Shown: positions 1,701-27,625, counted from the stretch's first letter. The stretch is 64,000 nucleotides of DNA from an uncultured delta proteobacterium (GCA_963785725.1 CAWAWS010000007.1:512001-576000), one strand, 5' to 3'. Notes: generated by a model from the letters alone, not told the origin. Numbers and translations: made by a program.

Positions 1701-3734
1701 GTGAGACGGCTGGCTGGCTTCGGCTGCGCGCTGGCGCTGCTGGCGGCGGCGCCGTCGCCTGCGGCCGCGGACGAGCAGACGTGGGTGCACGTCGGCGACG
1801 CCGCGCGAATGACGTGCGGCACGGCCCCGGCCGGCTGGCAGCGCGCGGACTTCGACGACCGCGCGTGGGTCGAGCGGCCAATCGTCTTCGAGCGGCATGA
1901 CAACGCGGCCGCGGCGGCTGCTGTTCCAGGCGAGACGGCCGATGCGCGCGCGCCGGCTGCGGCCACCGACGCGCCGACGAGCGCAGCCGCTCCGTCGCGT
2001 GCGACAAAGCCGGCGCCGCGGACGGCCGGAGCCGGCGCGCCCTCGACCGCTTCACCGAGCGCGCTCGGCGGCGCCACCTCGTCGTCTGGCACGCGCACCG
2101 CCTCCGCGACCGACGACCTCAACCGCACGTCGACCGCCGCCGATGCAGGCGTCGCCAGCTGTGTCGGCGCCCGCTTCGTCCGCTGGCACTTCACGGCCGA
2201 TGCGCGCGCGCTCGCCGCTCTGCGCGCCCTCACGCTGCGCGTTCGTTACACCCACGGCTTCGCCGCCTACCTCGACGGCACGGAGATCGCCCGCCGTCGC
2301 CTCGACGCCACGGCCGGCCCCGACGGTCTCGCCAGCGACGTCCACGGCCTCGAGTTCGAGAGCTTCGCCCTCGCCGCGCGCGGTCTGCTTCACGCGGGTG
2401 AAAACGTCCTCGCCATCGAGGTCCATCCGCACACCGCCGGACGCGCGACGTCGCTCGAGGCCTCGCTCGGCGGCGACGAAGGCCCGCGCCTGATCCGCGG
2501 CCCTTATCTGCTCGGTGTGCGCGAAAACGAAGCGACGATCGTCGTCGACACCGACCTGCCCACGACCGTCGCGCTCGGCTGGGGATCGCGCGCCGACTAC
2601 GGCTCGACCGCCACCGATCCGCTCGGCGTCCACCACGTCATCAAGCTGACGAAGCTCAAGCCCGGCGCCGTCTACCACTACCGCGTCCGCGCTCGAATGC
2701 TCGAAAATGCGCAATTGCACAACGAAAATGCGCAAACGCAAAATGCCAATGTGCAATTGCACAATGAAGATGCCCAAACCACAAATTATAATGTGCGTTC
2801 GCACAATGAAAATGCGCAAACGCCAAATTATAATGTGCGATCGCACAATGAAGAGGCGAAGTCAGATAGTGTGAAGGAGTCTTCGGCGGCGGTGGTCGAC
2901 AGCGGCGACGTGGCGTTTCACACGCCGCCGGAATCGGGACGGCCGCTGCGCTTTGCCGTCTACGGCGACGTTCGGTCGGGGCACGACATTCACGCCGAGC
3001 TCAACCGCTCCCTCATCGAAGAGCAGCCGGATTTTGCCATCCTGACCGGCGATCTCGTCGATCGCGGCACCGACGAAGGGGAGTGGGAGAGCTTCTTCGA
3101 AGTGGCCGCGCCGCTGCTGCGTCAGGTCTGTATCTTCCCGGCGATTGGGAACCACGAGTATGCCAAGCAGGGCCATGGGCTCGCGGCGTTCATGCAATTT
3201 TTTCGCTGGCCCATCGCCGGCGCCGACGAGCCGTCTTGGTACAGCTACGACATCGCGGGCGCGCATTTCGTGGCACTGGACAGCGATCAGTACAAGTCGC
3301 CGCGGCAGCTCGGCTGGTTCGAGCACGACCTGAAGGAAGCGCGTCGCCGCCGCGTCCGCGCCATCTTCGTCTACGCGCACGAAGGGCCGGCGTCGTCGGG
3401 GCTGCACGGCGACAACCCGATCTGCGTGCGCGACTACGTGCCCATCATGCAGCGCTATCGGGTGTCGATGTTCTTCGGCGGCCACGATCACGACTACGAG
3501 CGCGGCCGCACCGGCACACTCGACTACGTCGTCACCGGCGGCGGCGGCGCCGAGCTGCGCGCGGCCAGATGCGGCGTGCCGGGAAAGCGTCCTTGTCCCG
3601 CGCGCTGCGCCATCTTCGTCAACGACCACAACTACGTCATGGTCGAGCTGCTCCCGTCGCTGTTCCGCGTCTGCCCCAAGCGCGTCGATGGCACCCCGAT
3701 CGAAGCGTGCATCCAATACCCGCTGCATCAATAA
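1701..3734 (+). CDS. Secreted purple-acid-phosphatase-like metallophosphoesterase with FN3-like domain
   Basis: Signal peptide after GTG 1701; motifs GDVR, TGDLV, GNHE, AHEG, GHDHDYER; start inferred. Confidence 0.8.
   Translation: MRRLAGFGCALALLAAAPSPAAADEQTWVHVGDAARMTCGTAPAGWQRADFDDRAWVERPIVFERHDNAAAAAAVPGETADARAPAAATDAPTSAAAPSRATKPAPRTAGAGAPSTASPSALGGATSSSGTRTASATDDLNRTSTAADAGVASCVGARFVRWHFTADARALAALRALTLRVRYTHGFAAYLDGTEIARRRLDATAGPDGLASDVHGLEFESFALAARGLLHAGENVLAIEVHPHTAGRATSLEASLGGDEGPRLIRGPYLLGVRENEATIVVDTDLPTTVALGWGSRADYGSTATDPLGVHHVIKLTKLKPGAVYHYRVRARMLENAQLHNENAQTQNANVQLHNEDAQTTNYNVRSHNENAQTPNYNVRSHNEEAKSDSVKESSAAVVDSGDVAFHTPPESGRPLRFAVYGDVRSGHDIHAELNRSLIEEQPDFAILTGDLVDRGTDEGEWESFFEVAAPLLRQVCIFPAIGNHEYAKQGHGLAAFMQFFRWPIAGADEPSWYSYDIAGAHFVALDSDQYKSPRQLGWFEHDLKEARRRRVRAIFVYAHEGPASSGLHGDNPICVRDYVPIMQRYRVSMFFGGHDHDYERGRTGTLDYVVTGGGGAELRAARCGVPGKRPCPARCAIFVNDHNYVMVELLPSLFRVCPKRVDGTPIEACIQYPLHQ
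2707..2848. repeat. 7 x 21-bp array of 16-bp palindrome, in frame inside the phosphoesterase
   Basis: Units start 2707, 2728, 2749, 2770, 2791, 2812, 2833, e.g. ATGTGCAATTGCACAA, ATGTGCGATCGCACAA. Confidence 0.9.
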
Positions 3735-3858
3735 GCGCGCGCCTAATTGTGCGTTTGCGTCATACCGGCCGCGGTGTCGCTCGCGGGCTCGTCATGCCGT
3801 GTCGTACGACTCTGTCGAGGTGAGGTGCCGTGACGATACCGGGTGACGCTGACGCGCG

Positions 3859-4530
3859 CTACGTCGTGCGCTTGATCGGCCGAGGGGCGTTCTTGCCCGT
3901 GCGCAGCGCGATGAACGCCGCTTCGTCTTTGCACAGCAGGTAAGGATTCGACGTGCGCTCCCAGCCAATCGTCGAGGTCGGCGTCTGCCCGTAATCGTGG
4001 CCCGGCCAGACGCGCGTCTCTTCCGGCAGTGACGCCAGTCGCTGCAGGCTGCGCCACATCGTCGGCGCGTCGCCGCCGGGAAAATCGGTGCGCCCACAAC
4101 CGCCGATGAACAGCGTGTCGCCGGTGAAGACGTTGCCGTCGACGAGATACGACGTTCCGGAGACGGTGTGGCCCGGCGTCGCCAGCGCCTCGATGCGCAG
4201 CGCACCGACGGCGATCGTCTCGCCGCCGCGCAACGGGGTCACCTGCGCCGAGGGCGCCGCCCGCGCCAGCGCCTCGGCCTCGCCCACGCCGACGTAGACC
4301 TTGGCGCCCGTCGCGCGCACGATCTCCTCGACGCCGTCGACGTGATCGTGATGCGTGTGCGTGACGAGGACGATCTCGATTCGCCAACCGCGCTTCGCCG
4401 CCTCTTTCAGCAGCCGATCGACCTCGAACGCCGGATCGACGACGGCGCACACACGCGCCTCGCTGTCTGCAATTAGCTCATTGAAATTACTCATCAAGCC
4501 GACTTCGGTCTGGAATATTTCGAGCGCCAT
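3859..4530 (-). CDS. MBL-fold hydrolase (glyoxalase II/persulfide dioxygenase-like)
   Basis: THTHHDH, TPGHT, FTGDTLF, GCGRTDFPGG, WPGHDY; AGGAG RBS before ATG 4530. Confidence 0.85.
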   Translation of the reverse strand: MALEIFQTEVGLMSNFNELIADSEARVCAVVDPAFEVDRLLKEAAKRGWRIEIVLVTHTHHDHVDGVEEIVRATGAKVYVGVGEAEALARAAPSAQVTPLRGGETIAVGALRIEALATPGHTVSGTSYLVDGNVFTGDTLFIGGCGRTDFPGGDAPTMWRSLQRLASLPEETRVWPGHDYGQTPTSTIGWERTSNPYLLCKDEAAFIALRTGKNAPRPIKRTT

Positions 4531-4763: not shown

Positions 4764-4826
4764 TTGTGCAACTGCGTAATAAACAGTAATTATGCAGTTG
4801 CGTAATATCGTGGTGCATTTGCGCAA
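4764..4826. repeat. Three 16-bp palindrome copies upstream of metF
   Basis: 4764 TTGTGCAACTGCGTAA, 4790 TTATGCAGTTGCGTAA, 4811 TGGTGCATTTGCGCAA. Confidence 0.8.
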
Positions 4827-6642: not shown

Positions 6643-6892
6643 TTGTGCGACTGCATAATAAAAATGTGCAACCGCGTTATAAATTCACAGCTGCAGCGAA
6701 ACAGAGGCCTCGACGTGGCTTCCGCTCAATCGCGAACGAGGTTTCGGGCGGTCAACGTGCAAAAGCAAAATATCGCGCAGAGCGTCATCGGCGATCGCGG
6801 CCGCGACTTGGTCGCGGGCGGACGACGCGGCGGCGGTCGCCCCGGCGTCGCAAATTGTGCGATCGCACCATGTTTGCGGTGCATTTGCACAA
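6643..6892. repeat. Two pairs of 16-bp palindromes upstream of phaR-like gene
   Basis: 6643 and 6664 (21 bp apart); 6855 and 6877 (22 bp apart). Confidence 0.8.
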
Positions 6893-6923
6893 TATGTTAG
6901 CCTGCGTTCGATCGGAGGCCGGC

Positions 6924-7535
6924 GTGAGCAGCAAGGCGAGAGCGGCGAAGGGCAATAAAGGCGGCAGCGTCAAGTCGGCCGGCGCGCGCGCCGGTAAGCC
7001 GACCGCGACGGCCGAGGTCAAACGCAAGCGAGGGCGGCCGCCGCGGGCGCAGGCGGAGGCGACGCAGCAGGCGTTTCCCGGCGAGCGCATGATCCATCGC
7101 TACGGCAATCGTCGCTTTTACGATCTGGCGCAGTCGCGCGCGGTCACGATGGAGCAGATCGGCGACCTCGTCCGCGACAAGCAGAACGTGCGCATCCTCG
7201 ACGTCGAGCGCGGCAACGCCGACATCACGCGCCGGGTGATGCTGCAGATCTTGATGGAGTCGGGCGCGCAGCTGGACGCCGTTCCCGTCGAGTTTCTGCG
7301 CAAGCTCATCGTGCCGTTCGAGAAGCACACGGCCGGCTGGGTGCACAATTACCTGACGAAGGGGCTCGATTCGTTGGAGCGCGCCGAGCGGCAGGGCAAG
7401 GTGCCGGACAGCGACGGGCCGATGGCGAAGGGCGTCGTGGAGTACGTGCCGCAGGCCGACTACCGGCAGCAAATGGCCAAGGCCGACATCACGCGCAAGA
7501 TCGACGAGCTGCGCCGCAAGCTCGACGATATCTAG
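6924..7535 (+). CDS. PhaR/AniA-family (PHB accumulation regulator DNA-binding domain) protein with basic N-terminal tail and AT-hook
   Basis: IHRYGNRRFYD...VTMEQI...DITRRVMLQILME and VPVEFLRKLI match PhaR; KRKRGRPPR AT-hook; GGAGG RBS before GTG 6924. Confidence 0.8.
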   Translation: MSSKARAAKGNKGGSVKSAGARAGKPTATAEVKRKRGRPPRAQAEATQQAFPGERMIHRYGNRRFYDLAQSRAVTMEQIGDLVRDKQNVRILDVERGNADITRRVMLQILMESGAQLDAVPVEFLRKLIVPFEKHTAGWVHNYLTKGLDSLERAERQGKVPDSDGPMAKGVVEYVPQADYRQQMAKADITRKIDELRRKLDDI

Positions 7536-7687
7536 CCCGCGGCGCCTGTTTCGCCGCGTCGACGGCGCGGGCTCGTGGGCGGCGCTCGACTTGGAGTGAC
7601 CTCGCGTCGAGGCGCGCTACTTCACGCGAACGTGACCTACGGCGCACGGACCTGCGATCGGCGCGACCGAGAATCGCCGCGCGGCTG

Positions 7688-9871
7688 CTACTTCACGCGA
7701 AACGTGACTTGCAGCGCGCCGACATTGTCTGCCGCGTCCACCGCGCGCACCGCCAGCGAATGCGTGCCCGCGACGAGCCCGCTCGGCAGCTTCACGCTGA
7801 ACTCCTCGTTCGGATCGTCGAGAATCCCGTCCTTGGGCGCGAACGGCTGCCAATCGCCGCCGTCGACCGAGTACGCCAGATCCGAGATCGTCGAGAAGCT
7901 GTCGCGCGCACGCCCGCTCGCCCACGGATACGCCACCTTCAGATCGAGCAGCTCGGGCTTGCGGTTGTCGACGAGGAACGGCGTCGACGCCAGGCTATGC
8001 TCGAGCGCCTCCTCGCGCGGATTGGAGCGCTCGTCGGACGCCACCACCTTGACGACATAATTTCCGTCGGGAATCGACTCGGTGTTCCACTCGTAATCGG
8101 TGCGCGTCAAAGGCTCGGATCCGCCGAGCGGCTTCCAATTGCTCTCGCTCTCCTCGCGGAAATAGAGCCGATAGATGAGATCGTCGTCGTCGGGATTCTC
8201 GACGCGCCAGCGCAGCTTGACGACCGGCGACCGCGGCTTGGTCGCGCGCACGAACGCCGACGGTCGCCGCGCCTGCGTCTCCTCGCCGACGGTGAGCTCG
8301 GTGATGCGCGGCGGCTGATTCTTCGGCTGATAATAGGTCGTCAAATCGCGCAGCACCGTATGTGTCGCCGCGAAATTGACTCGCACCTGCAGATAGCGGC
8401 CATCCGGCGACGCGATATGGCCGACACCGCCGTCGCCCGTCTTCTCCATACGCAGCGGCGCCGTCCAGCCGCTCCACGTCTTGTCGGGATGCGACGTGTT
8501 GCCGGCGCGCGTCTCCAGCGTCAGCTGCCCGTGCCCGCTCCAGCGCACGTTGCCCCAGCGCGCCGGAAACTGCGCGTCGTAGACCTTGGTGACGTAATGC
8601 GAATCCTTGGGCGGATCGGCGCTGACACGATAAAGCGCGCCCGCGTCACCGGTTCCGATCAGCCCGTTTGGTGCACTTGCACCATGGTTTTGTGCAAACG
8701 CATCAAGCGACATCGTCAACACTTGGCGCTCCGGCAGATCGAGCGCCGTAATCACCGTGCGATCGGGGCGAATGAGGTAGACGCGGCCGTTGGAGCCGCT
8801 CGCCGCCCACACGTTGCCGTCGCTGTCGGCGAACACGGCGGTGAAGTAGCCGTCGGCGAGCGCGTGCAGCTGCTCGACGCGGCCGTCGGGATCGAGCCGG
8901 TAGATGGCGCCGCGGCCGCGGCGATCGCGGGTCAGCGACGCCGTCGTCGCCGGCGCGGCCGGTGTCGCCGGCAGCACCATCTTCGTGCCGTGCGGCGCGT
9001 CCGGTCCCGTCGAGACGGCGGGCGCGGTCGTTCCGGTGCGCTGGAACTCGTTGACGGCGACGTAGGTGACGTTGCCGCGGCGGGAGATGGCGCGCACCTC
9101 GTCGCCGTCGAAGTCGTGCAGCGCTTGCACCGTCGCGCCGTTCGCGGTGGGGACGATGCGATACAAGATGGCCTGATCGGCCGAGCCGGCGAGCAGCGCG
9201 CCGTCGTCGGCGCGCGCGAGCGACAGGAGGTGCTTCTCGCCGGTCTCGTAGACGAGCCGATCGCGGCGCCCGAACGACGGCCGATCGAGGTGCGACGCGT
9301 CGATGGCGAAGAGGCGCCCCGCCGGCCCGGTGGCGGCGTACAGCGTCTGCTTGGCTTCGTCGTAGGTCATCGCCCACACGTGCTCGGCGTCGAGCTTGGC
9401 CAGCTCCCGCGCCTTGCCGTCGCGGTCGATGAGATAGACGCGCCCGCCCGGCATCGTGCCCGCGAAGACGCTGCCGTTGGGGCCGACCGCCAGCGACGAG
9501 ACGAGGATCGCGTCTAGCTTGCACAGCCGCCGCAGCTTGCCCTTCTGATAGACGTAGACGACGCCCTGATCGCCGGTGCCGACGAAGACGGTGCCGTCCG
9601 CGCTGCTCGCCGTCGTGTACACGACCGACTCGTTGACCTCGATGCGCGTGGCGCTGAAGCCGCTCGTGGCCTCGCCCAGCGACGAGAGCAAGACGCCGGT
9701 CGATTCGCCTTCGTCGAAGTCTTTATAGCTGGTGATGCGCCAGGCGCGCGTGCCGCCGGCGAACGCAGCCTTTGTGGTGCAAATGCATAATAATGTGATG
9801 CAAACGCACAATAAGGCCGTCAGCTTGCGGAGAGATATTTTGCGATCGCACAACGAAGGCGCGGGCGTCAC
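7688..9871 (-). CDS. Secreted beta-propeller protein with C-terminal FN3/Ig-like domains
   Basis: Repeated xVGTG/AATG..G.(L/V)Y blades, signal peptide; ATGA overlap with upstream S55 gene. Confidence 0.7.
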   Translation of the reverse strand: MTPAPSLCDRKISLRKLTALLCVCITLLCICTTKAAFAGGTRAWRITSYKDFDEGESTGVLLSSLGEATSGFSATRIEVNESVVYTTASSADGTVFVGTGDQGVVYVYQKGKLRRLCKLDAILVSSLAVGPNGSVFAGTMPGGRVYLIDRDGKARELAKLDAEHVWAMTYDEAKQTLYAATGPAGRLFAIDASHLDRPSFGRRDRLVYETGEKHLLSLARADDGALLAGSADQAILYRIVPTANGATVQALHDFDGDEVRAISRRGNVTYVAVNEFQRTGTTAPAVSTGPDAPHGTKMVLPATPAAPATTASLTRDRRGRGAIYRLDPDGRVEQLHALADGYFTAVFADSDGNVWAASGSNGRVYLIRPDRTVITALDLPERQVLTMSLDAFAQNHGASAPNGLIGTGDAGALYRVSADPPKDSHYVTKVYDAQFPARWGNVRWSGHGQLTLETRAGNTSHPDKTWSGWTAPLRMEKTGDGGVGHIASPDGRYLQVRVNFAATHTVLRDLTTYYQPKNQPPRITELTVGEETQARRPSAFVRATKPRSPVVKLRWRVENPDDDDLIYRLYFREESESNWKPLGGSEPLTRTDYEWNTESIPDGNYVVKVVASDERSNPREEALEHSLASTPFLVDNRKPELLDLKVAYPWASGRARDSFSTISDLAYSVDGGDWQPFAPKDGILDDPNEEFSVKLPSGLVAGTHSLAVRAVDAADNVGALQVTFRVK
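8669..8705. repeat. Pair of 16-bp palindromes (21-bp period) inside CDS
   Basis: TGGTGCACTTGCACCA and TTGTGCAAACGCATCA; encode DAFAQNHGASAP. Confidence 0.8.
9775..9853. repeat. Three 16-bp palindromes in signal-peptide coding region
   Basis: 9775, 9796 (+21), 9838 (+42). Confidence 0.8.
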
Positions 9872-11964
9872 TGGCTCTGGTCGTCCTTGACGTGAACGGT
9901 GATCTCTTGTTTGCCCTGCATGACGCCGCGCATGGGCACGACGAAGCGGGCGGCGCGCTTGAACGTGTCGGCGCGACGCGTGGAGGCGCCCGGCCGCAGC
10001 GTATCGATGACGGAGCCGGGCAGATCGGGGATGACGCTGCCGCGGAGGGTGACGCCTTCGTCGGGCGTCTCCAGGCCGACGACGATGGAGTCGGCGGGGT
10101 AGCCTTTGCGCAAGTTGTCGATGAGGCCGCCCAAGCTCTCGGGCGGCGCGACGTCGGGGTGCGCGAGGCTGCCGGCGGTGACGACGACCTTGACCGACTG
10201 CCCGGCGAGCGCGCGCGGCACTTCGAGCGGGATGGCGCGGACGTATTCCTGGCCGGCGTAGGGGCGCAAGGTGACGTAGAGGTTGGGGCGCGAGCCGGGC
10301 ACGAGGTCGTCGGAGTTGAGCGCCACGCCGACGATCTCCGAGACCTCCGCCTTGTAGTCGACGTCGACGTCGATGTCGATGCGGTCGAGGTTGGCGGGCG
10401 CGAACGGGTTGAAGAGGATGTCGCCGATCGCCTTCAAGCCCGACGCCGACGCCAGCGTGCGCGTCGAGACGCCGTCGGGCGAGTAGACGTGATCGATGAG
10501 CACGAGCGGTTTGTAGCCGCGCACGGCCAGGTTCGAGCGCACCGTGATGGTGGCGTCGGCGACGTCGCTGGCCGCGTTCTGCGCGGCGTTGGCGACGACG
10601 GTCGAGGCCAGCATCGGCGTCAGGAAGCGGTGGCGCACCACCTCGAAGTGGAAGTCCTGCTCGGCGCGACCGGGCCCGCCGACTTTGACGTGCACGGGGA
10701 TCATGTCGGCGCGCTGCGACGTGTCGCCGATGATGCCGGCCTGGCGATCTTGCACCAGCGAGCCGATCTCGTTCAGCGGCGACGCCATCTTGAACGACGA
10801 CGACAGCGCCGACATGAACGTGTGAATCTCGGCGGTGGCGATCGGCAGATAAATCTCGCCGACGTTGAACATCGGATGGCCGAAGGCGAGCACTTTGTCG
10901 CCTTCGACGGCGGTGACGGTGCCGGTGCCGGCGGCGCTGACGTCGCCGCGGATGAGCTGCACGGCGATGGATCCGCCGTTCTCGAACGCTTTCGGCCCGC
11001 TGCCGTCGCCGCTGCCGGAGCCGCCGGCCTGCAGCGGCACCATATGGAACGGCTCGAAGACGCGCGTCAGCTCGGCGAACGCGGCGGCGCCGACGCCGGC
11101 CAGCGACAGCGGCACCGACGCGCGCACCAGGCGCGGCTCGGCGCCTTCGGGCAGCGCCGGCAGCGGCAGGCGCGCCAACAGCGGCGAGCGATCGTTCACC
11201 GGATCGCGGCCGTCGCCGATGGCCTCCGCCAAGCTGCGCCGCGCCGACGCCGTAAATTGTGCATTCGCGTCATTACGTTGTGCGAATGCACCATCACGTT
11301 GTGCGATTGCATCATTATGTTGTGCGTTTGCACCAACTTCGCCACCGCGACGACGATATTGCGGATCATTGGCCGCTTCGGCGACGGGCGTGCTCGACCG
11401 GCCGCGCAGCGGGCGCTTCAGGTCCGCCATCATCGTCTCGATGGGCGTGACGCCGGCGATGGGATCCTTCGCGAAGTGCCAGCCATAGCTGAGCGCGCCG
11501 GCCAGGCGGCCTTCGAAGTAGATGGGCGAGCCCGACATGCCGGCGACGATGCCCGAGTGCAACAGGCGCGGATCGTCGGACTGCACGAGGATGATGTCCT
11601 GCTTGGGCAGGAAGTTGTGCAGCACGCTGATGACAGTGACGTCGAAGCGCTCGGGCTTCGTGCCTTTGAACACCGTCAGGCCGTAGCCTTTCATGCCGGC
11701 GCGGACTTCGGATAACGGCATGTAGTTGCCGTGGCGGACGGCGGCAGGCGTGACGATGGGCGCGTTGCCGCGCGCCGGCAGCGACCCGGGAGCGGCGGTC
11801 GTCGGCGACGTCGTGGGCGTGATGGTCATCGGAGCGCCGGTCGTCGCCGAAGCCGGGGCGACCGCGCTGCTCGTGTTCGGTGCGGCACCGGCGACGGAGG
11901 CGATCAGAGCCGCGGCTGCGACCGACGAGACAGGTAGCAGGCGAGCGGTCAGACGCAGGAACAT
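9868..11964 (-). CDS. SpoIVB-type peptidase S55 domain protein
   Basis: GMKGYGLTVFKG, GIVAGMSGSP, GTGTVT, AFGHPM; start inferred. Confidence 0.85.
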   Translation of the reverse strand: MFLRLTARLLPVSSVAAAALIASVAGAAPNTSSAVAPASATTGAPMTITPTTSPTTAAPGSLPARGNAPIVTPAAVRHGNYMPLSEVRAGMKGYGLTVFKGTKPERFDVTVISVLHNFLPKQDIILVQSDDPRLLHSGIVAGMSGSPIYFEGRLAGALSYGWHFAKDPIAGVTPIETMMADLKRPLRGRSSTPVAEAANDPQYRRRGGEVGANAQHNDAIAQRDGAFAQRNDANAQFTASARRSLAEAIGDGRDPVNDRSPLLARLPLPALPEGAEPRLVRASVPLSLAGVGAAAFAELTRVFEPFHMVPLQAGGSGSGDGSGPKAFENGGSIAVQLIRGDVSAAGTGTVTAVEGDKVLAFGHPMFNVGEIYLPIATAEIHTFMSALSSSFKMASPLNEIGSLVQDRQAGIIGDTSQRADMIPVHVKVGGPGRAEQDFHFEVVRHRFLTPMLASTVVANAAQNAASDVADATITVRSNLAVRGYKPLVLIDHVYSPDGVSTRTLASASGLKAIGDILFNPFAPANLDRIDIDVDVDYKAEVSEIVGVALNSDDLVPGSRPNLYVTLRPYAGQEYVRAIPLEVPRALAGQSVKVVVTAGSLAHPDVAPPESLGGLIDNLRKGYPADSIVVGLETPDEGVTLRGSVIPDLPGSVIDTLRPGASTRRADTFKRAARFVVPMRGVMQGKQEITVHVKDDQSQ
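11257..11335. repeat. 4 x 21-bp palindrome array in frame inside S55 peptidase
   Basis: 11257, 11278, 11299, 11320; encodes GANAQHNDAIAQRDGAFAQRNDANAQ. Confidence 0.9.
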
Positions 11965-12174: not shown

Positions 12175-12236
12175 TTGTGCATTTGCATAATAAATGATGC
12201 GAGCGCACAATTCACTGCTGATGTGCGTTCGCATCA
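12175..12236. repeat. Three intergenic 16-bp palindromes
   Basis: 12175 TTGTGCATTTGCATAA, 12195 TGATGCGAGCGCACAA, 12221 ATGTGCGTTCGCATCA. Confidence 0.8.
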
Positions 12237-12471: not shown

Positions 12472-12912
12472 ATGAAGTCTTTGTGGTGCGCCGGCATCAT
12501 GTTTTGTTGTGCAGTTGCGTCATCAGGCTGTGGCGGAAGCTCGGCGACGTCGTCCACCAAGGACGTCATCGGCAGCTACATGGTCATGATCACGAACACC
12601 GACGTCAATCGCACCGACTCCGACGTCATGACGGTAGCGCCGGGCAGCGGCGGCGACATCTTGCTGACGTTCGTCGCCGGCATCACGACCGATATTTCCG
12701 GCCCGAACCCGGACGGGTTGCGCGGGACGATCAAAGCGACCGAAGTGACGGTGGCGTCGCAGCCGGCGCACGTCGATCACTCGACGGGCAACCTCGACGG
12801 GACGATCAGCGGAACGGGCACGTTCAAGACTGACGGCGTCGACCTGAAGATGATGTTCGAGCCGGCCGGCGGCACGGCGATGTCGTTCGAGATCACCGGC
12901 ACCCACCTGTAA
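12472..12912 (+). CDS. Putative lipoprotein
   Basis: Signal peptide ending SSG-C followed by GGSS linker and beta-rich domain. Confidence 0.7.
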   Translation: MKSLWCAGIMFCCAVASSGCGGSSATSSTKDVIGSYMVMITNTDVNRTDSDVMTVAPGSGGDILLTFVAGITTDISGPNPDGLRGTIKATEVTVASQPAHVDHSTGNLDGTISGTGTFKTDGVDLKMMFEPAGGTAMSFEITGTHL

Positions 12913-13269: not shown

Positions 13270-14064
13270 TTACGGCACGAGGACGGTGCCGACGCTGCCG
13301 GGCTCTCCGACGGCGCGCGCGACGTCGCGCGAGACGATGTAGATGGCGCGCGCGCCGGCTTCCAACGCCGCGAACGACTCCTCCAGCTTCGGGATCATTC
13401 CGCCCGACACCGTGCCGTCGGCGATGGCGCGCTTGCCGTCGGCGACGGTCAGCCGCGGGATGCGCGACGCCGGGTCCTGAATGTCGCGCAAGACGCCCGG
13501 CGCGCCGGTGACGAGCACGAGCGCGTCCGCCCGCAGCGCGCCGGCGAGCTGGTTGGCGACGATGTCGGCGTTGATGTTGTAGACCGCGCCGTCGCTGCCG
13601 TGGCCGAGGCAGGCCACGACCGGCACGTAGCCATCGTCGAGAACGCGCGCCAGCAGCGCCAGATCGAAGTCGTCGACATCGCCGACGTGACCGAAGTCGA
13701 TCGGATCGGGCCCGCAGCCGGAAACGACCCGTGGCGGCCTCTTGTGCGCTCGCACAATATCGTGGAGCCCCACCGGCTTCAGCCCCGCGGCACGCAGCTG
13801 CGTGCACAGGTCGACGTTCACCTGGCCGGCGATGACCATCTTCATGACGTCGAGCGTGGCGGCGTCGGTGATGCGGCGGCCGCCGACGATGCGCGACTCG
13901 ATGCCCAGCCTCTTCGACAGCGCCGTCGCTTGCGGGCCGCCGCCGTGGCTGACGACGACGCGGCGGCCGCCGTCGACGAGCGTGCGCAGGTCGCGCGCCA
14001 GCGGCGCCATCTCCGCGCCGCCGACGACCTCGCCGCCGAGTTTGACGACGATCGTTTCACTCAT
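13270..14064 (-). CDS. argB: Acetylglutamate kinase
   Basis: VVKLGG, SHGGGPQ, GRRITD, NINAD, GGMIPK. Confidence 0.92.
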   Translation of the reverse strand: MSETIVVKLGGEVVGGAEMAPLARDLRTLVDGGRRVVVSHGGGPQATALSKRLGIESRIVGGRRITDAATLDVMKMVIAGQVNVDLCTQLRAAGLKPVGLHDIVRAHKRPPRVVSGCGPDPIDFGHVGDVDDFDLALLARVLDDGYVPVVACLGHGSDGAVYNINADIVANQLAGALRADALVLVTGAPGVLRDIQDPASRIPRLTVADGKRAIADGTVSGGMIPKLEESFAALEAGARAIYIVSRDVARAVGEPGSVGTVLVP

Positions 14065-14087: not shown

Positions 14088-14145
14088 TGGTGCAGTTGCA
14101 TAATTATATGGTGCAAATGCGTAATTGCATGATGCAAATGCACAA
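14088..14145. repeat. 3 x 21-bp palindrome array between argC and argB
   Basis: 14088, 14109, 14130; abuts the argC stop codon. Confidence 0.9.
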
Positions 14146-15263: not shown

Positions 15264-15352
15264 TGGTGCAAATGCATCATGACGCGGGCGCGGCTCCGTG
15301 GCGTCGCTGGAGATATTGTGCATATGCGCATTATTGTTGTGCATATGCATCA
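15264..15352. repeat. Three intergenic 16-bp palindromes upstream of argC
   Basis: 15264, 15316, 15337 (+21). Confidence 0.8.
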
Positions 15353-17134: not shown

Positions 17135-17363
17135 TCAGCCCGCCGCGCCTTCCGTGTCCGTTCGACGAGACGCTCGCTTCTACGCCAGGGTACGATCAAA
17201 GCCTTCGCAGACATCATTCGATCAGATCGTCGGGAGATTCTGCGGCGCGTAGTCGCGGCTGCGGCGCACCGTCGGCACGTCGCGACAGACCGGCGACGCA
17301 GTGCGGTTGCGAACCCGCAGCGATCGCGTCGCCAGCTCGGCCCGCATGCAGTAAAGTCGCGCC

Positions 17364-17942: not shown

Positions 17943-18168
17943 TGGTGCATCTGCACAATCGAATGTGCGGCTCTAAAATCGCACCTGCAGAATTGGTCTT
18001 GGCAGCGGTATCGAATCTATTGTTTCGACGAGTCCGTTCGACCAGACGCGTCTTGCCGAACGGACTCGCTACTTCACGAGCGCCACTGCGCCTTCATCGG
18101 GCTCCGAGCTCGAATCGCTCCGGCAGCGAGTGACCTGCCGGGGCGCCGCGTCGTGCCGGGACGGCCTT

Positions 18169-19210: not shown

Positions 19211-19269
19211 ACGGGTTAATATGTGACGGATCCTTCGGGTTTCCATTCGCATTCCAAGCGAGAGGACCT

Positions 19270-19932
19270 ATGCATTCGTTTCAGCCGAGAAAGAAGCCGA
19301 TCCAGGAGCGCTCGAAGGCCACGGTCGAGGCCATTCTGGAGGGGACGATTCGGGTCTTGCTCGACGAGGGGTTCGAGACGCTGACCACGACGCGCGTGGC
19401 GAAGGTCGCCGGAGTGGGCGTCGGGACGCTCTACCAGTACTTCCCGGCGAAGGAGTCGCTCCTGTTCGCCCTCCTCGAGCGCGAAATGACGACGCTCGAG
19501 ACGGAGCTGCTCGGGACGCTCGTGGCGACGGAGAGCCAATCGCTCGAAGCGCGCATTACCGCGACGATCGACGCTCTCGTGCGCCACAAGAAGGCGCACG
19601 CCGAGCTCAGCGTGGTGCTGCAGGCCCACATGCCGCGCTTCAATGGGATCCGGGTCGTCCGCGCGACAGTGCGCCGGATCGTCTCCGCCTTCGCCGTCGT
19701 GATCCGTCCGAGCTTGGCAGCGCGGATGGACGACGCAGAAGTGCAGCTCGTCGCGATGATGATCGCAACCGCAGTCCAGGGGGCGATCGACGGCGCCCTC
19801 AATCTCTCCGCGGCGACCCTCCGGCGCCCAGCGTTTCGGGACGCGCTCGTTCACCTCGTCCTCGGCTATCTCCGCGAGTCGGGGGCGAAGCTTCCGCCCC
19901 GGCTCCGCACGCGCGTCCGTCTCCGGTCGTGA
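19270..19932 (+). CDS. TetR-family regulator divergent from epimerase
   Basis: PRKKPIQERS, TTTRVAKVAGVGVGTLYQYFPAKE. Confidence 0.9.
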   Translation: MHSFQPRKKPIQERSKATVEAILEGTIRVLLDEGFETLTTTRVAKVAGVGVGTLYQYFPAKESLLFALLEREMTTLETELLGTLVATESQSLEARITATIDALVRHKKAHAELSVVLQAHMPRFNGIRVVRATVRRIVSAFAVVIRPSLAARMDDAEVQLVAMMIATAVQGAIDGALNLSAATLRRPAFRDALVHLVLGYLRESGAKLPPRLRTRVRLRS

Positions 19933-21706: not shown

Positions 21707-22642
21707 CTACGCGACGAAGGCCGCGTCCGAGGCCGACTGCGGAATTGCCAGCGCTTCGTCGTAGCCCGGCGTGACCACTCGCGCCGACGGCGCGTGCAGG
21801 CGCGCCTCGGCGACGAATCCGTCGAGATCGATCCCCGGCAAGAGGTGCACACCGCCCTCGAGCGGCGCGAAGAACGCGTCATGATGCGTTGGCACAATTA
21901 ACTGCGGGCGCAGCGCGCCGCACAGTCGCGCCAAGTAGTCGCGCGTCGCGCGCCGGCCGGCCAGACCGACGAGCAGCACGTCGGCGCGGGCGCCCGCGAG
22001 CGCGGCATCGATGAGGTCCGCGGAGCCGTTGTGATAGAGGCGCAGGCCGTTCGCTTCGACGAGGATGCCATAGGCGCCGCCCATGCGATAGCGCCACGCC
22101 GGCGCCGGCAGCGACGGCGGCGTGGTCACCTCGCCCGGAAACGGCACGCGATGCAGCACGACGCGACCGTGAAGGCTGGGCACGAAGCGCACGGTCGCCG
22201 CGCCAATCGCGAGGCTGCCGCCGTCGCCGCCGATCTCCCGCAGCTGCATCGCCGGCACGCCGGCGGCGCGCGCGAAGGCGCAGCTGCTGCGGCTGCCGAC
22301 GAAGAGCGCGCCCGTGGCCAGCGCGATCGCCGGCGCGTCGAGCAGGTGATCGAAGTGGCTGTGGCCGCACAGCACGGCGTCGACGCGAGGCGGCAGGTGC
22401 GCGCGAATCGCCGTCGCGTCCGGCTGCAGCGGCCGCAGCAGCTGCATCGCCGACGGCCGCGTCAGAAACGGGTCGATGAGCAGCGTCGTGCCGCCCACCT
22501 CGATGACATGGCCGGCCGTCCCCAACCAGCGCACGCGCATCGCCTCGTCGCCGCTGGCGCGCGTCGTCGGACGAAGCTCCGCGCGCGGCTTCCAACGCGG
22601 GAAGAGCCGGCGATAAAGCCAGCCGTTATGGTGCGATCGCAT
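21707..22642 (-). CDS. MBL-fold metallo-hydrolase (UlaG/UPF0173-like)
   Basis: WLGTAG, LIDPF, GHSHFDH, IVPTHHD. Confidence 0.85.
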   Translation of the reverse strand: MRSHHNGWLYRRLFPRWKPRAELRPTTRASGDEAMRVRWLGTAGHVIEVGGTTLLIDPFLTRPSAMQLLRPLQPDATAIRAHLPPRVDAVLCGHSHFDHLLDAPAIALATGALFVGSRSSCAFARAAGVPAMQLREIGGDGGSLAIGAATVRFVPSLHGRVVLHRVPFPGEVTTPPSLPAPAWRYRMGGAYGILVEANGLRLYHNGSADLIDAALAGARADVLLVGLAGRRATRDYLARLCGALRPQLIVPTHHDAFFAPLEGGVHLLPGIDLDGFVAEARLHAPSARVVTPGYDEALAIPQSASDAAFVA

Positions 22643-22723
22643 TAGACGCCCATGCTAACGCAACCGAACCCGAGCATCGCCACCTCCTGACGCAGACGCA
22701 CGACGCGCTCGTGAAGAGCGTCA

Positions 22724-22781
22724 TTTTGCAATTGCACCACGTATTTGTGCGTTTGCATAATGGTGTGGTGCGAATGCACAA
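22724..22781. repeat. 3 x 21-bp intergenic palindrome array
   Basis: 22724, 22745, 22766; another copy at 22629 spans the MBL gene start. Confidence 0.9.
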
Positions 22782-22836
22782 TAAGATTGGGGAAGCTGGC
22801 GGCCCGCCTAACGGTGGCACCGCGAGATCGAACGCG

Positions 22837-23499
22837 TTAGAAGCGGAAGCCGATCGTGGCGAGCAGGTCGAGGTCGACGGCGTCGAACTTCGGCGTCAGC
22901 AGCACCAGGTTGGCCTCGGTGATCGACAGATCGTGCGACGGTGCGATCGGGAAGCCGGCATAGAGGCCGACCATGATGTGGCGGTGGATGTTGAAGTTGA
23001 CGCCGAAGCCGGGCTCGAAGGTGAACGCCGTCGAGCTGCGCGTCGTGCTGGCGGTGAAGCCGGCGGCGCTGCCGCTGTATTCGGCGGTGATGTAGTCGAC
23101 GCCGAGCGCCAAGCGCACGTAGAACGAGCCGATGCCGAAGGGCACGATGAAGCGGCCGCCGGCCAGCGCGCGGATGCGGTTGGCTTTGACGTCGATGTGG
23201 TTGTCGGCGTAGGTGCCGTCGTCGCTGTTGACGGGGATGTAGTCGAACTGCAGCTCGGGCGCGATGCCCAAATTGTGCGCGAGGTAGATGATGACGCCGG
23301 CGCGCAGCGAGAGCTTGAACGACGCATCGGCGAACTTGTTGTAGTTGCTGTCGGCGATCGGAATGGCGACGCCGCTGGCGAACTCGAGCATGAAGGCCGT
23401 GCGCGGCGGCGCTTCGTAGGCCTGCGTTGTGCGAGCGCACAATAAAGCGGAAGTGGCGAAGATCAAGGCGAGCAACGTCTTGTTCAGTCTCATCGTCAT
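22837..23499 (-). CDS. Outer-membrane beta-barrel protein
   Basis: Signal peptide, alternating beta-strands, terminal Phe (IGFRF). Confidence 0.75.
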   Translation of the reverse strand: MTMRLNKTLLALIFATSALLCARTTQAYEAPPRTAFMLEFASGVAIPIADSNYNKFADASFKLSLRAGVIIYLAHNLGIAPELQFDYIPVNSDDGTYADNHIDVKANRIRALAGGRFIVPFGIGSFYVRLALGVDYITAEYSGSAAGFTASTTRSSTAFTFEPGFGVNFNIHRHIMVGLYAGFPIAPSHDLSITEANLVLLTPKFDAVDLDLLATIGFRF

Positions 23500-23731
23500 G
23501 AGGGCCCCATTGGGTCGATTCGTTACGTGGATGGTTTACTTGGGGACAGCGGCGAACGGCTTTTACCGACGACCTCGGCGGTCGCCAAACCGTAGACCAC
23601 CTCGGTGTAGCCGTCGGCGAGCTCGACTGCGCGGGCGGCGCCGTTGGCCGAAAGCTCGATGCGCGGCATGGCGCACGAATCATGGGCACGCCGGCCGCGG
23701 AATTACAAGCTCCGGGACGGTAACTTCGTCG

Positions 23732-23768
23732 TAGTGCAACTGCACAATGACGTGATGCGTTTGCATCA
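23732..23768. repeat. Pair of 16-bp palindromes (21-bp period)
   Basis: TAGTGCAACTGCACAA and TGATGCGTTTGCATCA. Confidence 0.8.
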
Positions 23769-24042
23769 TTTTCGCGCGCAAACGCGAGCCGCTCAGCGCG
23801 TGCGCGGCCGGCTCGCGCGCGCCGCCGGTGGCACGACGCCGATTCGGTGTGCGACGCCGGCTCGTCTCACTGCAATTCGTGGCCGAGGCAAGCTCGCCGA
23901 GACATACAGCATTCGCGAATCAATGTTGATCAACCCGTCGAACGAAGCTGCGCTGGCCGGATGGAGGATCATCGGCATTTGCGTGCGTGCAGTGAACGCG
24001 AGTCGATGCGCGGTGATTCGTCGTGCCTGACGTCGGGCGCGG

Positions 24043-25242
24043 CTAAGTGCCGGGCGCGTAAATCGCGATCTCGCTGTTGCCGGCGCCCGTGAAGGCGCCG
24101 TCGGCGTCGACGACGCGCAGCCGCAAGAGCTCGGCGACGATCGAGAGCGGTATGATCTGATACTGGGTCGCGGCCACCGTCGTGACCGGCGTCCACGTCA
24201 TCAGGTCATTCGAGCTTTCGATCGCGATCTTCTGCGTCGCCCCCGATATCGTCACGTCATAGAGAACCAGCATCGCCATGGGATGCTGGAAGCCGATATC
24301 GATCGCGATCCAATTGTTCTGCGTCGGCGGCGTGCAAGTTTGCCCCGTCGGACAGGCCGGCGCCGCGACCGGCACGAACTTGGTGCCCATATTCCCGTCG
24401 GTGAGCGGACAGGGGCGGGCAATCAGCGCCGGCCCGGTCGCCGTCTGCACATAACAATCGCCGGTACGCGAAAGCGGATTCAAGAAGCGACTGGCATAAG
24501 CCTGCTGCGACGAATACCAGGTGATGCCGAAGGTCGTGCCGGCGCTATTGTCCGTCCGTTGCGCGGTCGCCGACCAGCTGCCGGCGAAATCCTGCGTCGC
24601 GTGGCGATCGACGACGACGTTCGCCGCCGCCTGCGCGTCCTGCAGCCACACCAGATTGCCGAGCGTGTCGCGAATGGTGACGCGATAATCGTCGGCCGCG
24701 GCGCCGCCGATCGTCGACTGCAACGGCGGCCACGTAAAGTGCGGGTCGCCGCTCGCGTCGTCTTCGCTGCCCAACGCCGTCCATTGGCGCAGCGCTGGAA
24801 TCTCTAAATTGGGCGTCTGCACAATGAAGTCGGCGGCCACGGCGCAGTCGCCGACCGCCGGCGCCGGCTGCGCGGCACAGCTGGCGAACATCGTGAACGT
24901 GAGCGCCTCGTCGGTCGATCCTTGCGTGTCCGAGCCCTTGAGCGCGAAGTGATAGCTGCCGTCGCTGGCGGTGGTCGATTGTGCGAACGCGCTGCAGATG
25001 TCGAGCTGGCCGCCGAGGCAGGCCAAGCCGAGGCTGCCGATGGCCTCGAAGATCTGGCCCAGCGCCTCCAGCGGATCGGGATGGCGAATCAGCTTCGCCG
25101 TGACCGGCGGCGACGGCGCCCCGTTTTGCGTTTGCACAACTCCCGTGATGGTGACGCTCGAGCTTGGCTCCAGCTTGCTGTGCGGCCCGAAGCAGCCGGC
25201 GGCGAGCGTCAGTCCCAGCGTAGCCAGGTGGCTGCTGCGCAT
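24043..25242 (-). CDS. Lipoprotein with C-terminal discoidin-like beta-sandwich
   Basis: LAAG-C lipobox; WIAIDIG...IESSNDLMTWT; GGAGG RBS. Confidence 0.7.
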   Translation of the reverse strand: MRSSHLATLGLTLAAGCFGPHSKLEPSSSVTITGVVQTQNGAPSPPVTAKLIRHPDPLEALGQIFEAIGSLGLACLGGQLDICSAFAQSTTASDGSYHFALKGSDTQGSTDEALTFTMFASCAAQPAPAVGDCAVAADFIVQTPNLEIPALRQWTALGSEDDASGDPHFTWPPLQSTIGGAAADDYRVTIRDTLGNLVWLQDAQAAANVVVDRHATQDFAGSWSATAQRTDNSAGTTFGITWYSSQQAYASRFLNPLSRTGDCYVQTATGPALIARPCPLTDGNMGTKFVPVAAPACPTGQTCTPPTQNNWIAIDIGFQHPMAMLVLYDVTISGATQKIAIESSNDLMTWTPVTTVAATQYQIIPLSIVAELLRLRVVDADGAFTGAGNSEIAIYAPGT

Positions 25243-25421
25243 ATGAACCTCCCGCCATAGAATATCATCACCGAGAAGATTGCGGCGCTCCGCCCTGTCG
25301 AGCGCGAATGGCGAGCTGTGCGGCTGAGTCAAAGGTCGCGGCGTCGGCGAAAATGTGCGCGCGCCCGGACTCGCAACGGCCGGGCTTACTTGCATTGCCA
25401 ATCGACGTTACAGTCACGTCA

Positions 25422-25892
25422 ATGGAGAGCGACACCGACCTCACCAAGTTCGATCGCGAATGGCCCGAATTTCTCAGAGAAGTGGGGACCGCGCTGCCCG
25501 GCGTCCAGCTTCTCTTCGGCTTTTTGCTGACCGCACCCTTTAGCGCCAACTTTCCGAAGCTCACGAACGATCTCAAGCACGTCTATTTCATCTGCTTCCT
25601 TTGCACGTCTGCGGCCTGCGCATTCCTCATCGCGCCCAGCGTCTACCATCGCCTGCATTGGCGGCGCGACGTCCGCGACAAAGAGCAGATGATCCGCACG
25701 TGCAATCGACTCGTCATCGCCGGCATCGGCATGCTCGCGGTCGCCATGACCACGGCGATCTACGTCATCGCGTCGGTCATGTCGAGCCACTCGGTCACGC
25801 TGTTGGCGACGGGAATCGCCGGCCTGACGTTCACCGGCCTGTGGTTCGCGCTGCCCTTGCTGCGCCGTCAAAGCGATCTCAAGCAGTCGTGA
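25422..25892 (+). CDS. DUF6328-like membrane protein
   Basis: LREVGTALPGVQLLFGFLL..PF, LIAPSVYHR. Confidence 0.75.
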   Translation: MESDTDLTKFDREWPEFLREVGTALPGVQLLFGFLLTAPFSANFPKLTNDLKHVYFICFLCTSAACAFLIAPSVYHRLHWRRDVRDKEQMIRTCNRLVIAGIGMLAVAMTTAIYVIASVMSSHSVTLLATGIAGLTFTGLWFALPLLRRQSDLKQS

Positions 25893-25962
25893 TGCATCCG
25901 CACATTTAGGTCGACCGATTGCCGTGGTGCGAATGCACAATTAATGTTGTGCATTTGCATCA
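25890..25962. repeat. Three 16-bp palindromes starting at a stop codon
   Basis: 25890, 25925, 25947. Confidence 0.75.
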
Positions 25963-26099
25963 GGAATTGCTTCGCCATGGCGCGGACCGCGCGCCGTCGC
26001 GTCCTGCGAGCCACGCGCGCTCGCGACTGCAGGCGCGCGGCTTCGGCGGTCGCCGTGGCGATGACGTCGCCGGAATCGCGCGCCGCCGCGTGCTGCGAG

Positions 26100-27625
26100 T
26101 TAGGCGCGCACGCGCGACTGCACGCGCGCCGCTTCGGCGGCGGCCGTGGCGATGACCTCGCCGTAGTCGAGCCCCGTCGCCTCCGTCAGCCGGCCGCCGC
26201 GTACGAGGACGCGGCCGTCGACGAGCACGTCGCGCACGTCGCGGCTCTGGCACGCGTAGACCAGCGTCGAGACGGCATCGAACGACGGCGTCGCGTGCGC
26301 GCTGCGCGGGTCGACGACGATGATGTCCGCCCGCCGCCCGACCTCCAGCGCGCCGATCTCGTCCTCGAGGCCGAGCGCCGCCGCGCCGCCGCGCGTCGCC
26401 AGCTCCAACACCGTCGCCGCCGGCATCGCGGTCGCACCCGCGCGCGGCTTGTGCAGCAGCGCCGCCAGCCGCAGCTCGAGGAAGCCGTCGAGATTGTTGT
26501 TGCAAGGCGCGCCGTCGGCTCCGAGCGCGACGTGAATCCCCTGCGCCAGCATCTCGGGAATCGGCGCGATGCCGCTGGCCAGCTTCAAGTTCGACGACGG
26601 GCAGTGCACGACGTGCGTGCCCGCCGTCGCCGAGCAGCGCGCGCTCGGCGTCGGTCGCGTGGACGCAGTGCGCGAGCACCGCGCGCGGCCCGGCCAGCCC
26701 CAGCGACTCGAGGTAGGCGATGTTGTCGTCGCCGCGCTCGGCTCGCACGACGGCGATCTCGGCCTGCTGCTCCGACGCGTGCGTGTGCAGTCGCGCGCCG
26801 GCCGCGCACGCGCGCCGCGACCTCGCGCAGCAGCGCCTCGGTGCACGACAGGACGAAGCGCGGCGCGTACGCCCAGCGCAGCCGTCCGTCGGCCGCGCCG
26901 TGCCAGCGCTCGCGCAGGGCGTCGCTCTCGTCGAGCGAGCTGCGCGTCGTCTCGCGCAGTCGCGCCGGCACGCCGTCGCCGACGTCCATCATCGCCTTGC
27001 CGATCGTCGCGCGCAGCCCGGTCCCAGCGACGGCGTCACACAGCGCGTCGGTCTCGTGCACGGTGGCCATGTCGAGGATCGCCGTCGTGCCGCCGAGCAG
27101 CAGCTCGGCGCAGGCCAGCCGCGCCGCCGCGCGCATCGCCCGCTCGTCGAGCGCCGCTTCGTACGGCCACACGCGCTGCCGCAGCCACTCGAGCAGCGGC
27201 AGATCGTCGGCATGCCCGCGGCACAGCGTCTGGCACAGGTGCGTATGCGCCTGCACCAGCCCCGGCAAAACGATACAGCCGCGCGCGTCTATATATTGTG
27301 CGTCCGCATCACGATCCGTCGCCGCCCCGGCACCCGATTGTGCGTTTGCACCATGGTATTGTGCGTTTGCACCACCCGACGCGCGTTCCGCCCGGCTGAT
27401 TGTGCGTTTGCACCATGGTATTGTGCGTTTGCACCATCGCTCGGCGTCCGCGGCGGGCGATTGTGCATTTGCACCATGGCGTTGTGCAGTTGCATCATGG
27501 GCTGACGCGGCGGCGGGCTCGATGGAGACGATGCGGCCGTCTTCGATGACGACGTCGCCGACCATGACGCGGCGGGCGGCATCCATCGTGACGATGGTGC
27601 CGCCGGCAACGATCACGCGGCTCAT
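26100..27625 (-). CDS. Amidohydrolase, MtaD/5'-deoxyadenosine deaminase-like; frameshifts near 26800 and 26620
   Basis: LPGLVQAHTH, YAPRF, HTHASE, LAHCVH, HCPSSNLKLASG, LGADG spread over three frames. Confidence 0.85.
27296..27497. repeat. Seven 16-bp palindromes in frame inside amidohydrolase
   Basis: 27296, 27338, 27359, 27400, 27421, 27461, 27482; mostly TTGTGCGTTTGCACCA. Confidence 0.92.

Follow-up and report, generated by a model that had tools for sequence, protein, structure and literature searches.

The usual picture of a bacterial repressor is of one to a few operators at each promoter, and looping systems of the lac type (also deo and lambda CI) comprise 2-6 sites within a few kilobases. 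Chromosome organisers and eukaryotic factors are the known cases of dense, phased site clusters that run through tens of kilobases, coding sequence included. Here we analyse a 64,000-nucleotide stretch of DNA from an uncultured delta proteobacterium (C7:512,001-576,000, hereafter the window), which belongs to an 8.9-Mb assembly of 47 contigs that is 88% complete (genome G000). Its left part carries about 55 copies of a 16-bp palindrome, the box, which form a carpet around phaR-2, a gene related to the polyhydroxyalkanoate (PHA) regulator gene phaR. Judging from the box sequence, its promoter position and its co-occurrence with the gene across genomes, the box is very probably an operator bound by PhaR-2, and we put at roughly 55% the probability that the carpet consists of auxiliary operators that hold this multimeric repressor on one chromosome region.

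The closest described operators are the PhaR (AniA) boxes of Bradyrhizobium, Sinorhizobium, Rhodobacter, Paracoccus and Cupriavidus. A footprinted PhaR box is printed as TGCRNYGCASMA (PMC6201568) and another as WNWD2NYGCRNYGCRNH2WNW, with AT-rich arms (PMC12542648), a PhaR homologue is a tetramer bound to a GCN3GC core (PMC10888616), and autorepression is a known PhaR trait in other bacteria (PMC7204398). The core of the box, TGC-R..Y-GCA with AT-rich arms, agrees with these printed forms, and the systems are also alike in promoter doublets, in a site at the regulator's own promoter and in a PHB_acc_N protein encoded beside PHA-synthase genes. Described boxes occur one or two per promoter in a scattered regulon, whereas here 40-75 phased copies extend over 25-45 kb and into unrelated genes, and are kept without synthase genes at the locus, in uncultured myxobacteria. 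Because its centre has four bases and not three (71 domain matches against 3), we class the box as a PhaR-box variant.

Box and candidate binder

The box has the consensus T(T/G)(G/A)TGC-R-N-N-Y-GCA(C/T)(A/C)A and was searched for as TKRTGCRNNYGCAYMA, with at most one mismatch allowed. The window holds 52 matches, every one between 2749 and 27497, against a mean of 0.59 and a maximum of 3 in 100 dinucleotide shuffles. A scan with a weight matrix trained on 42 of the window's sites gives 55 window sites at 12 bits or more (a count that is circular as to training, which the genome-wide contrast below is not), at coordinates that agree with the list in the initial annotation of this DNA. Both counts bear out its ~55 palindrome copies. 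Its statements that 27.5-64 kb holds no full copy and that copies ignore gene boundaries also stand: past 27,600 the matrix scan of the window gives no score above 7.6 bits, and the 55 sites comprise 29 in coding sequence, 24 between genes and 2 over gene ends. The arrays at 4764-4811, 12175-12221 and 14088-14130 are each spanned by ~95% similar contigs from other soil runs, in which array length differs, and the arrays are therefore not an assembly artefact.

The array had been described as read by a protein of the ParB, RacA, MatP or Noc class. The protein-read part of this claim is supported and the class is not; the domain is centred on a PhaR-family gene that had not been noticed. The features at this gene are (strand given where one is assigned):

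6924..7535, plus strand: phaR-2, PhaR-like (Pfam PF07879, PHB_acc_N, E 7e-17); start codon uncertain
6855..6900, plus strand: box doublet, 22 bp apart, candidate autorepression site of phaR-2; same layout in 10/10 upstream regions printed
6643..6770: boxes upstream of phaR-2 (6643, weak 6664, 6755); relatives carry phaC-fadD-fabG and five more genes in this gap
7536..7687: junction at which relatives have another phaC together with phasin-like open reading frames (ORFs); bridged by an independent soil contig (X1 record 3)

Boxes surround phaR-2 at all ten genome loci that carry the gene (104 sites in 139 kb, 2-27 per locus), compared with 2 sites over 356 kb at the 22 loci that represent the other two clades of PhaR paralogues, and 25 sites over 985 kb at 70 more distant loci from GTDB (L073-L082 duplicate other loci and were counted once). 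An out-of-sample metagenome scan gave 53 sites in 31 kb, with 2-16 at each of nine phaR-2 loci (7 independent), against 13 sites in 555 kb at 71 control loci. The class is represented by 301 genomes, of which 290 contain at most 10 exact matches, like the reversed control, and 11 contain 11-74; nine of the 11 box-rich genomes have phaR-2, and the remaining two are 51-53% complete. The densest contig in unbiased pattern lists is the phaR-2 contig in G003 (16/42), G004 and G013 (7/11). Site density is maximal within 5 kb of phaR-2 in all six contiguous loci and tails off by 10-30 kb, except for a second block in G000. phaR-2 is the sole gene of the domain with a best match in all 10 loci, and the domain accompanies it into differing neighbourhoods (G008, G010, G013, G017, G021). 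The carriers are all uncultured genomes, labelled Polyangia or Myxococcales.

PhaR-2 comprises an AT-hook-like RGRP stretch, the PHB_acc_N DNA-binding domain and a C-terminal helix. Against TIGR01848, the PhaR equivalog, the window protein reaches 69.8 bits and orthologues 76 and 101 (cut-off 109.45), with the full model length matched. An AlphaFold model from 9 sequences has a mean predicted local distance difference test score (pLDDT) of 64.9, with the domain at 50-110 reaching 87-92; its best fold match (Z 5.0, root-mean-square deviation 2.7, 73 aligned) is uninformative. In a tree, the PHB_acc_N proteins of 31 related genomes form three clades, with a support of only 85/75 for that of PhaR-2.

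A box lies at the phaR-2 promoter. A TATG(C/T)T hexamer resembling a -10 element directly follows the second box of the 6855..6900 doublet, and a box stands immediately 5' of T(A/C)TG(C/T)TAG in all ten upstream regions printed; five of nine metagenome loci share the layout of the doublet. In four promoters the box fills exactly the 17-bp gap that follows TAGATT. We infer that TAGATT and T(A/C)TG(C/T)TAG are the -35/-10 pair of phaR-2, and the doublet is likely its autorepression site.

Other candidate binders were considered and rejected. PhaR-1 and the third paralogue clade have 2 sites across 22 loci, for which 11 of 28 PhaR-1 loci were fetched. The TetR gene at 19270-19932 has no best match in the relatives' 10 phaR-2 loci, and no box lies between 17958 and 21882. 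The argBC genes and the 21-bp step also brought ArgR, NtrC, Rex, CRP and NrdR boxes into question, which differ in half-site geometry. As an observation in its own right, PhaR-1 (C7:384,157-384,714; L047:9657-10214) is highly conserved and present in 28 of the 31 genomes, including synthase-less ones, and no box was identified for it.

Carpet anatomy and genomic distribution

The boxes of the window lie in or beside metallophosphoesterase, metF, argB, argC, SpoIVB-like protease, LOG, thioredoxin, lipoprotein and amidohydrolase genes, which have no common function. Listed from the left edge of the domain, with no strand assigned, they are:

2707..2848: five strong and two degenerate boxes, forming most of a 64-aa in-frame insertion in the metallophosphoesterase gene by 42-bp tandem expansion; left edge of the domain (2707-2833 in the initial annotation, right in position, counted there as seven copies)
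3747..3762: one box, between the ends of two convergent genes
4764..4826: three boxes 5' of metF
8669..8705: doublet inside a beta-propeller gene; one box common to G001/G004, the other new (substitutions and a 9-bp insertion)
9775..9853: three boxes near the N-terminus of the same beta-propeller gene, in a signal-peptide-like region, also at this place in G001, G003 and G004
11257..11335: four boxes in 21-bp steps, an in-frame insertion in the SpoIVB-like gene, with rare codons
12175..12236: triplet in a divergent promoter region
12484..12522: doublet at the start of a lipoprotein gene, conserved in G003/G004
13742..13757: single box deep in argB, retained in G003 and G004, decayed in G002
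14088..14145: triplet between argC and argB; relatives have no spacer there, and soil run X1 has a longer variant
15264..15352: three boxes 5' of argC
17943..17958: box at the stop codon of LOG; the relatives' box lies ~140 bp upstream inside the gene (turnover)
21882..25962: boxes at 21882, 22629, 22724-22781 (x3), 23427, 23732/23753, 24809, 25124 and 25890-25962 (x3), variously in coding or signal-peptide-like sequence, between genes and at convergent gene ends
27296..27497: array of seven boxes, an insertion within the 5' portion of the amidohydrolase gene; right edge of the domain

The amidohydrolase gene is the right edge in G000, G002 and G003 alike, and the following 20 kb of G002 and G003 contain 0 sites. 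It spans two frames (window 25960-27625), as does mfd (C7:465.6-469.2 kb), in both cases likely through assembly indels. The sulfatase, epimerase and TetR genes at window 15593-19932 are box-free and without best-match partners in the relatives' syntenic loci; they are likely recent arrivals on which the carpet has not yet formed.

Box spacings are whole helical turns. Among 46 neighbour distances of up to 110 bp in G000, 27 are exactly 21 bp and 5 exactly 42 bp, with a helical phasing of R=0.80 (43 distances). In relatives, 78 of 82 neighbour pairs are 21-23, 31-33 or 42-44 bp apart (R=0.87 at 10.5 bp), and none of the 82 is spaced 25-30 or 34-41 bp. Spacing of mostly 21 or 42 bp, as annotated, thus stands for G000, and a rule of multiples of three does not survive the comparison with relatives. 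Arrays are spaced more evenly than random in four of six box sets.

One alternative is an ordinary PhaR regulon with neutral spill-over, in which a few promoter boxes matter and the rest are passengers of slippage or of local mutation under a tightly bound protein. Plain tandem expansion made the arrays at 2707 and 27296, which vary among soil populations (the former differs in copy number in soil run X1). In relatives, 105 of 142 sites lie between genes or no more than 60 bp from a gene end, and other genera again have satellite boxes at an exopolysaccharide-type cluster and close to mfd, as real targets would. Adjacent 21-mers, however, are hardly more alike than random box pairs (0.68 versus 0.64), and so most doublets are not recent duplications; spacings of 31-33 and 42-44 bp are not derivable from copying one unit, and the genes under the boxes share no function. 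Boxes in coding sequence arise through several substitutions, to rare codons, and persist across species: 18 of 29 coding sites are improbable (P<0.05) under the codon usage of the genome. For 32 alignable sites of G002-G004, a G000 site lies nearby for 20 and not for 12, and the alignments show substitutions and a box lost at one spot and gained 20-140 bp away. We regard spill-over as quite unlikely.

Genome-wide, the matrix finds 137 matches in G000; two C7 blocks account for 75 of them, and the remaining 8.8 Mb for 62. Confinement to a 25-kb domain, as first annotated, therefore holds within the window and fails for the genome: past a 33-kb gap, and 30-58 kb ahead of the window, a second block of 20 sites occupies C7:453.7-481.9 kb. 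In relatives this region has just 2-4 sites, and the second block expanded around two to four mfd-proximal sites that relatives possess as well, as the comparison of loci indicates. It covers mfd, SurA-like foldase genes, a BagA/BagB-like ArsA ATPase pair and a lipase-like gene.

Satellite boxes at C4:42,533-42,569, in an asparagine-synthetase/glycosyltransferase cluster, and at C36:25,927 (see also loci L068, L069) are shared with G012 and are likely true regulon targets. In G021 (L050:2776-7723), boxes occur at gene junctions in a type II secretion-like operon, far from phaR-2. An unbiased search for locally enriched palindromes and 8-mers returned only two box families, the PhaR type and a GntR type; a third local motif, at C3:470-476 kb, turned out to be a 306-bp protein repeat. 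There, C3:470,514-477,065 encodes a 2,183-aa protein with a cysteine-rich 102-aa repeat.

The regional clustering, helical phasing and indifference to genes resemble parS-type systems, and the initial annotation accordingly proposed a chromosome-organisation or anchoring locus for a ParB, RacA, MatP or Noc-type protein, with a hint of origin proximity. dnaA is at C19:114 kb and a single ParB gene at C6:333 kb (parAB on C6); scans with a parS consensus and a dif pattern gave three canonical parS at C19:123.7 kb (9 kb from dnaA), another single parS on C16 and one dif-like site at C26:217,118. From either end of C7 it is at least 453 kb to one block and at least 396 kb to the other, so that the box domain is at least 396 kb from dnaA and the dif-like site, and its neighbour genes vary between genera. 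These positions do not support the hint of origin proximity, and membership with parS, ram, matS and NBS is not supported either: canonical parS lie elsewhere, there is one ParB only and the box co-varies with phaR-2. GC skew and third-position skew of C7 are weak, and in this draft assembly the contig is not placeable on an origin-terminus map. The location of dnaA/parS and parAB on separate contigs is unlike the usual origin layout; in Myxococcus xanthus, 22 parS are reported near the origin (PMC3899335).

What stands of the proposal is a regional, gene-ignoring, protein-read array on one helical face that is not a promoter-only regulon, given the phasing and the coding positions. It also stands that the box is not a mobile repeat, as boxes arise in place by substitution without a fixed element or flanks, and 103 proteins scanned over the region include no transposase and no ParB or Noc. 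Box arms are perfectly complementary in 8% of 75 G000 sites versus 21% after shuffling (15% versus 28% in the genus; two other groups have no deficit), and an Rfam search of the window found only a tRNA at 40674; the box is therefore not an RNA or cruciform stem. Taken together as one alternative, a parS-like or origin-anchoring locus or a mobile or RNA-hairpin repeat is very improbable.

The pha cluster of relatives and a parallel carpet

Within the genus, the genes found on either side of phaR-2 in the window exactly enclose a pha cluster. Its order in relatives is phasin-like ORF, phaC, phaR, phaC, acyl-CoA ligase, reductase, hydrolase and outer-membrane protein; phaC stands beside phaR-2 in nine of ten relatives' loci, with a fragment in G013, and boxes also occur at the starts of phaC and the phasin-like gene. 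In other genera the cluster has different neighbours, and the boxes move along with it. At L014:7857-18580 (also L013 and L017-L019), two divergent class-III-like synthases surround phaR, together with an alginate-export-like outer-membrane protein. The synthases score 249-268 bits, below the cut-off, and at each of three loci checked both retain the catalytic box GYCMGG; PhaE was not matched among the 11 proteins scanned in the L014 cluster.

In G000, by contrast with these relatives, phaR-2 alone remains at the locus, and no PHA synthase orthologue was found in the 88%-complete assembly. Metagenome contigs L167/L168, from one population, have the same reduced gene order with a box doublet upstream of PhaR-2, which is 46% identical to that of G000 and groups with it (support 95/93). 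Because they share the reduced order on long branches, the loss of the pha cluster is old, and phaR-2 and its boxes have outlasted it; the upstream deletion junction (6643-6770 side) rests on their gene order. The genomes thus form a graded series: G006, G008 and G010 have two to six boxes, G001, G003, G004 and G012 have carpets around a PHA cluster, and G000 has a carpet without the cluster.

A domain centred on phaC-phaR-phaC in relatives, with synthases that keep their catalytic box, invites the idea of a granule centromere, in which PhaR-2, one end on DNA and the other on polyester, would tie nascent PHA granules to the locus so that they segregate with the chromosome, as a sequence-specific version of PhaM or PhaF. 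PhaR is described as binding both DNA and granules (PMC10888616, PMC12542648), and PhaM and PhaF as segregating granules via the nucleoid (PMC9049629). However, polyhydroxybutyrate (PHB) is reported to nearly abolish DNA binding by PhaR of B. diazoefficiens in vitro (PMC6201568), which suggests that polymer and DNA compete and which, together with the lack of a synthase orthologue in G000 despite the longest arrays, weakens the tether. A second carpet without a granule link also speaks against it, and the idea is improbable.

This second carpet is formed by the palindrome (A/T)TGGTT-N-AACCA(A/T), of whose 225 genome-wide near-matches 176 fall in four domains of 15-35 kb, with 38 spacings of 21 bp:

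C7:356.6-389.5 kb, C7:421-435.7 kb, C33:40.5-64 kb and C39:297.5-315.9 kb: GntR-box domains (loci L047, L153, L156, L157)

A doublet of this GntR box stands at the promoter of a FadR-type gntR gene (C7:367,773-368,570) in G000, G002 and G010, and two of the domains lie over unrelated genes, including thyA, folA and glycosyltransferases. The GntR-box expansion is found in the same genera (g1, g4, g9) as the PhaR-box carpet. Because an unrelated regulator of the FadR-type GntR kind shows the same pattern in the same genera, carpets appear to be a regulator-level habit that is not granule-specific.

Function of the carpet and comparison with known systems

So, what would such a carpet do? By analogy with homologues, from which its oligomeric state is taken, PhaR-2 oligomers may bind phased box pairs cooperatively on one face of the DNA and bridge arrays 1-2 kb apart. 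The resulting local reservoir or looped domain would keep a scarce, self-repressing PhaR-2 near its targets. The carpet would then sharpen or buffer a switch that ancestrally may have been the release of PhaR onto nascent PHA granules. We give this reservoir or looping function even odds, separately from the auxiliary-operator reading itself.

Several observations count against the assignment to PhaR-2 and against auxiliary operators. The sharing of phaR-2 among loci is partly by construction, because the loci were picked by that gene, and in the unbiased lists G021 has 6 matches on another contig and 4 on the phaR-2 contig, with G010 (2/16) not clear. G006 and G008 have phaR-2 and only 5 exact matches each, and a carpet is therefore not required for PhaR-2 to work. 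The presumed main targets, phaC and phasin, are absent from the locus in G000 and L167/L168, and the second block (C7:453-482 kb) contains no phaR gene, just as three of the four GntR-box domains contain no gntR gene. Even spacing of arrays is not significant in G000 (P=0.33), in G004 (P=0.30) or in any of the four GntR-box domains. All four PhaR-like proteins tested are under the TIGR01848 cut-off, the four-base centre is unlike the three-base centre of every described PhaR box consulted, and a PDB sequence search with PhaR-2 gave no match under E 0.04 and no solved PhaR structure.

Some of the same facts fit another role, in which PhaR-2 has been co-opted as a chromosome-architecture protein, with the carpet folding or positioning the segment and gene control secondary. 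phaR-2 is intact with its boxes in both lineages that lack the pha cluster there, on long branches, and G000, one of these, has the longest arrays at a cost of in-frame insertions of up to 64 aa. Boxes at convergent gene ends and deep within genes, compensatory turnover, and a right-edge gene identical in three genomes point the same way. All 11 PhaR-2 proteins contain an AT-hook-like stretch before the domain, although the pattern used is a loose one and picks up 7 of 11 proteins in another paralogue clade as well. SlmA and RefZ, of the TetR family, are a precedent for repressor-type proteins that use the chromosome as a landmark (10.1101/459685). Against this role, the domain moves with the gene into other neighbourhoods and shows no fixed chromosome position, no tie to ori, parS or dif was seen, and boxes are nearly missing in two phaR-2 genomes. 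We consider it unlikely. A wider proposal is that metabolic repressors (PhaR, FadR-type GntR), with boxes repeated every 1-2 kb in helical phase and through coding sequence, each build their own folded or tethered domain of 15-45 kb, the PhaR one having outlived the PHA genes here and become purely architectural; this is tentative and on balance doubtful.

If the carpet is indeed a set of auxiliary operators of PhaR-2, keeping a regulator on one chromosome stretch by such means would be unusual in a bacterium. Two unrelated repressors with carpets in the same genera make antenna-like clusters testable in bacteria, and let one ask how a metabolic regulator turns into a chromosome landmark; were the architectural role true, a nucleoid organiser would have been caught evolving from a transcription factor. 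The comparison also yields a probable PhaR box for myxobacteria and a pha cluster with two synthases. A literature search, with most subscription journals outside its reach, found no published case of a regional, phased operator carpet embedded in coding sequence, and no myxobacterial PhaR box.

Several described systems share parts of this pattern. REP/MITE-type repeats (repetitive extragenic palindromes and miniature inverted-repeat transposable elements) have paired arms, an insertion signature and a transposase, none of which applies to the box. PhaM of Cupriavidus and PhaF of Pseudomonas are proteins that touch both granule and DNA and are tied to the PHA locus (PMC9049629); PhaF is described as a non-specific DNA binder, sequence-unrelated to PhaR, and PhaM as attaching by histone-like lysine motifs, whereas here the box is specific and no synthase was found in G000. 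The FadR-type GntR carpet of the same genome likewise has an autoregulatory 21-bp doublet and 15-35 kb domains in unrelated genes, in the same genera, with another box and protein family, four domains versus two, and no granule link. SlmA-binding sites (SlmA/SBS), RefZ-binding motifs (RefZ/RBM), parS/ParB, ram/RacA, matS/MatP and Noc-binding sites (NBS/Noc) are likewise short palindromes confined to a region and indifferent to genes (10.1101/459685); unlike these landmarks, the present domain shows no tie to origin or terminus, moves with a gene, is denser and smaller, has a candidate binder from a metabolic-regulator family and exists beside a separate parS/ParAB. The lac auxiliary operators are likewise extra phased or clustered sites for one factor close to its target, and eukaryotic DNA antennas or homotypic clusters are likewise proposed to raise local supply and strengthen repression (PMC6987225). 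As in both, the extra sites here are concentrated around phaR-2 and helically phased. Antennas are degenerate sites in eukaryotic non-coding DNA, whereas the boxes described here are of full strength and lie in bacterial coding sequence over tens of kilobases.

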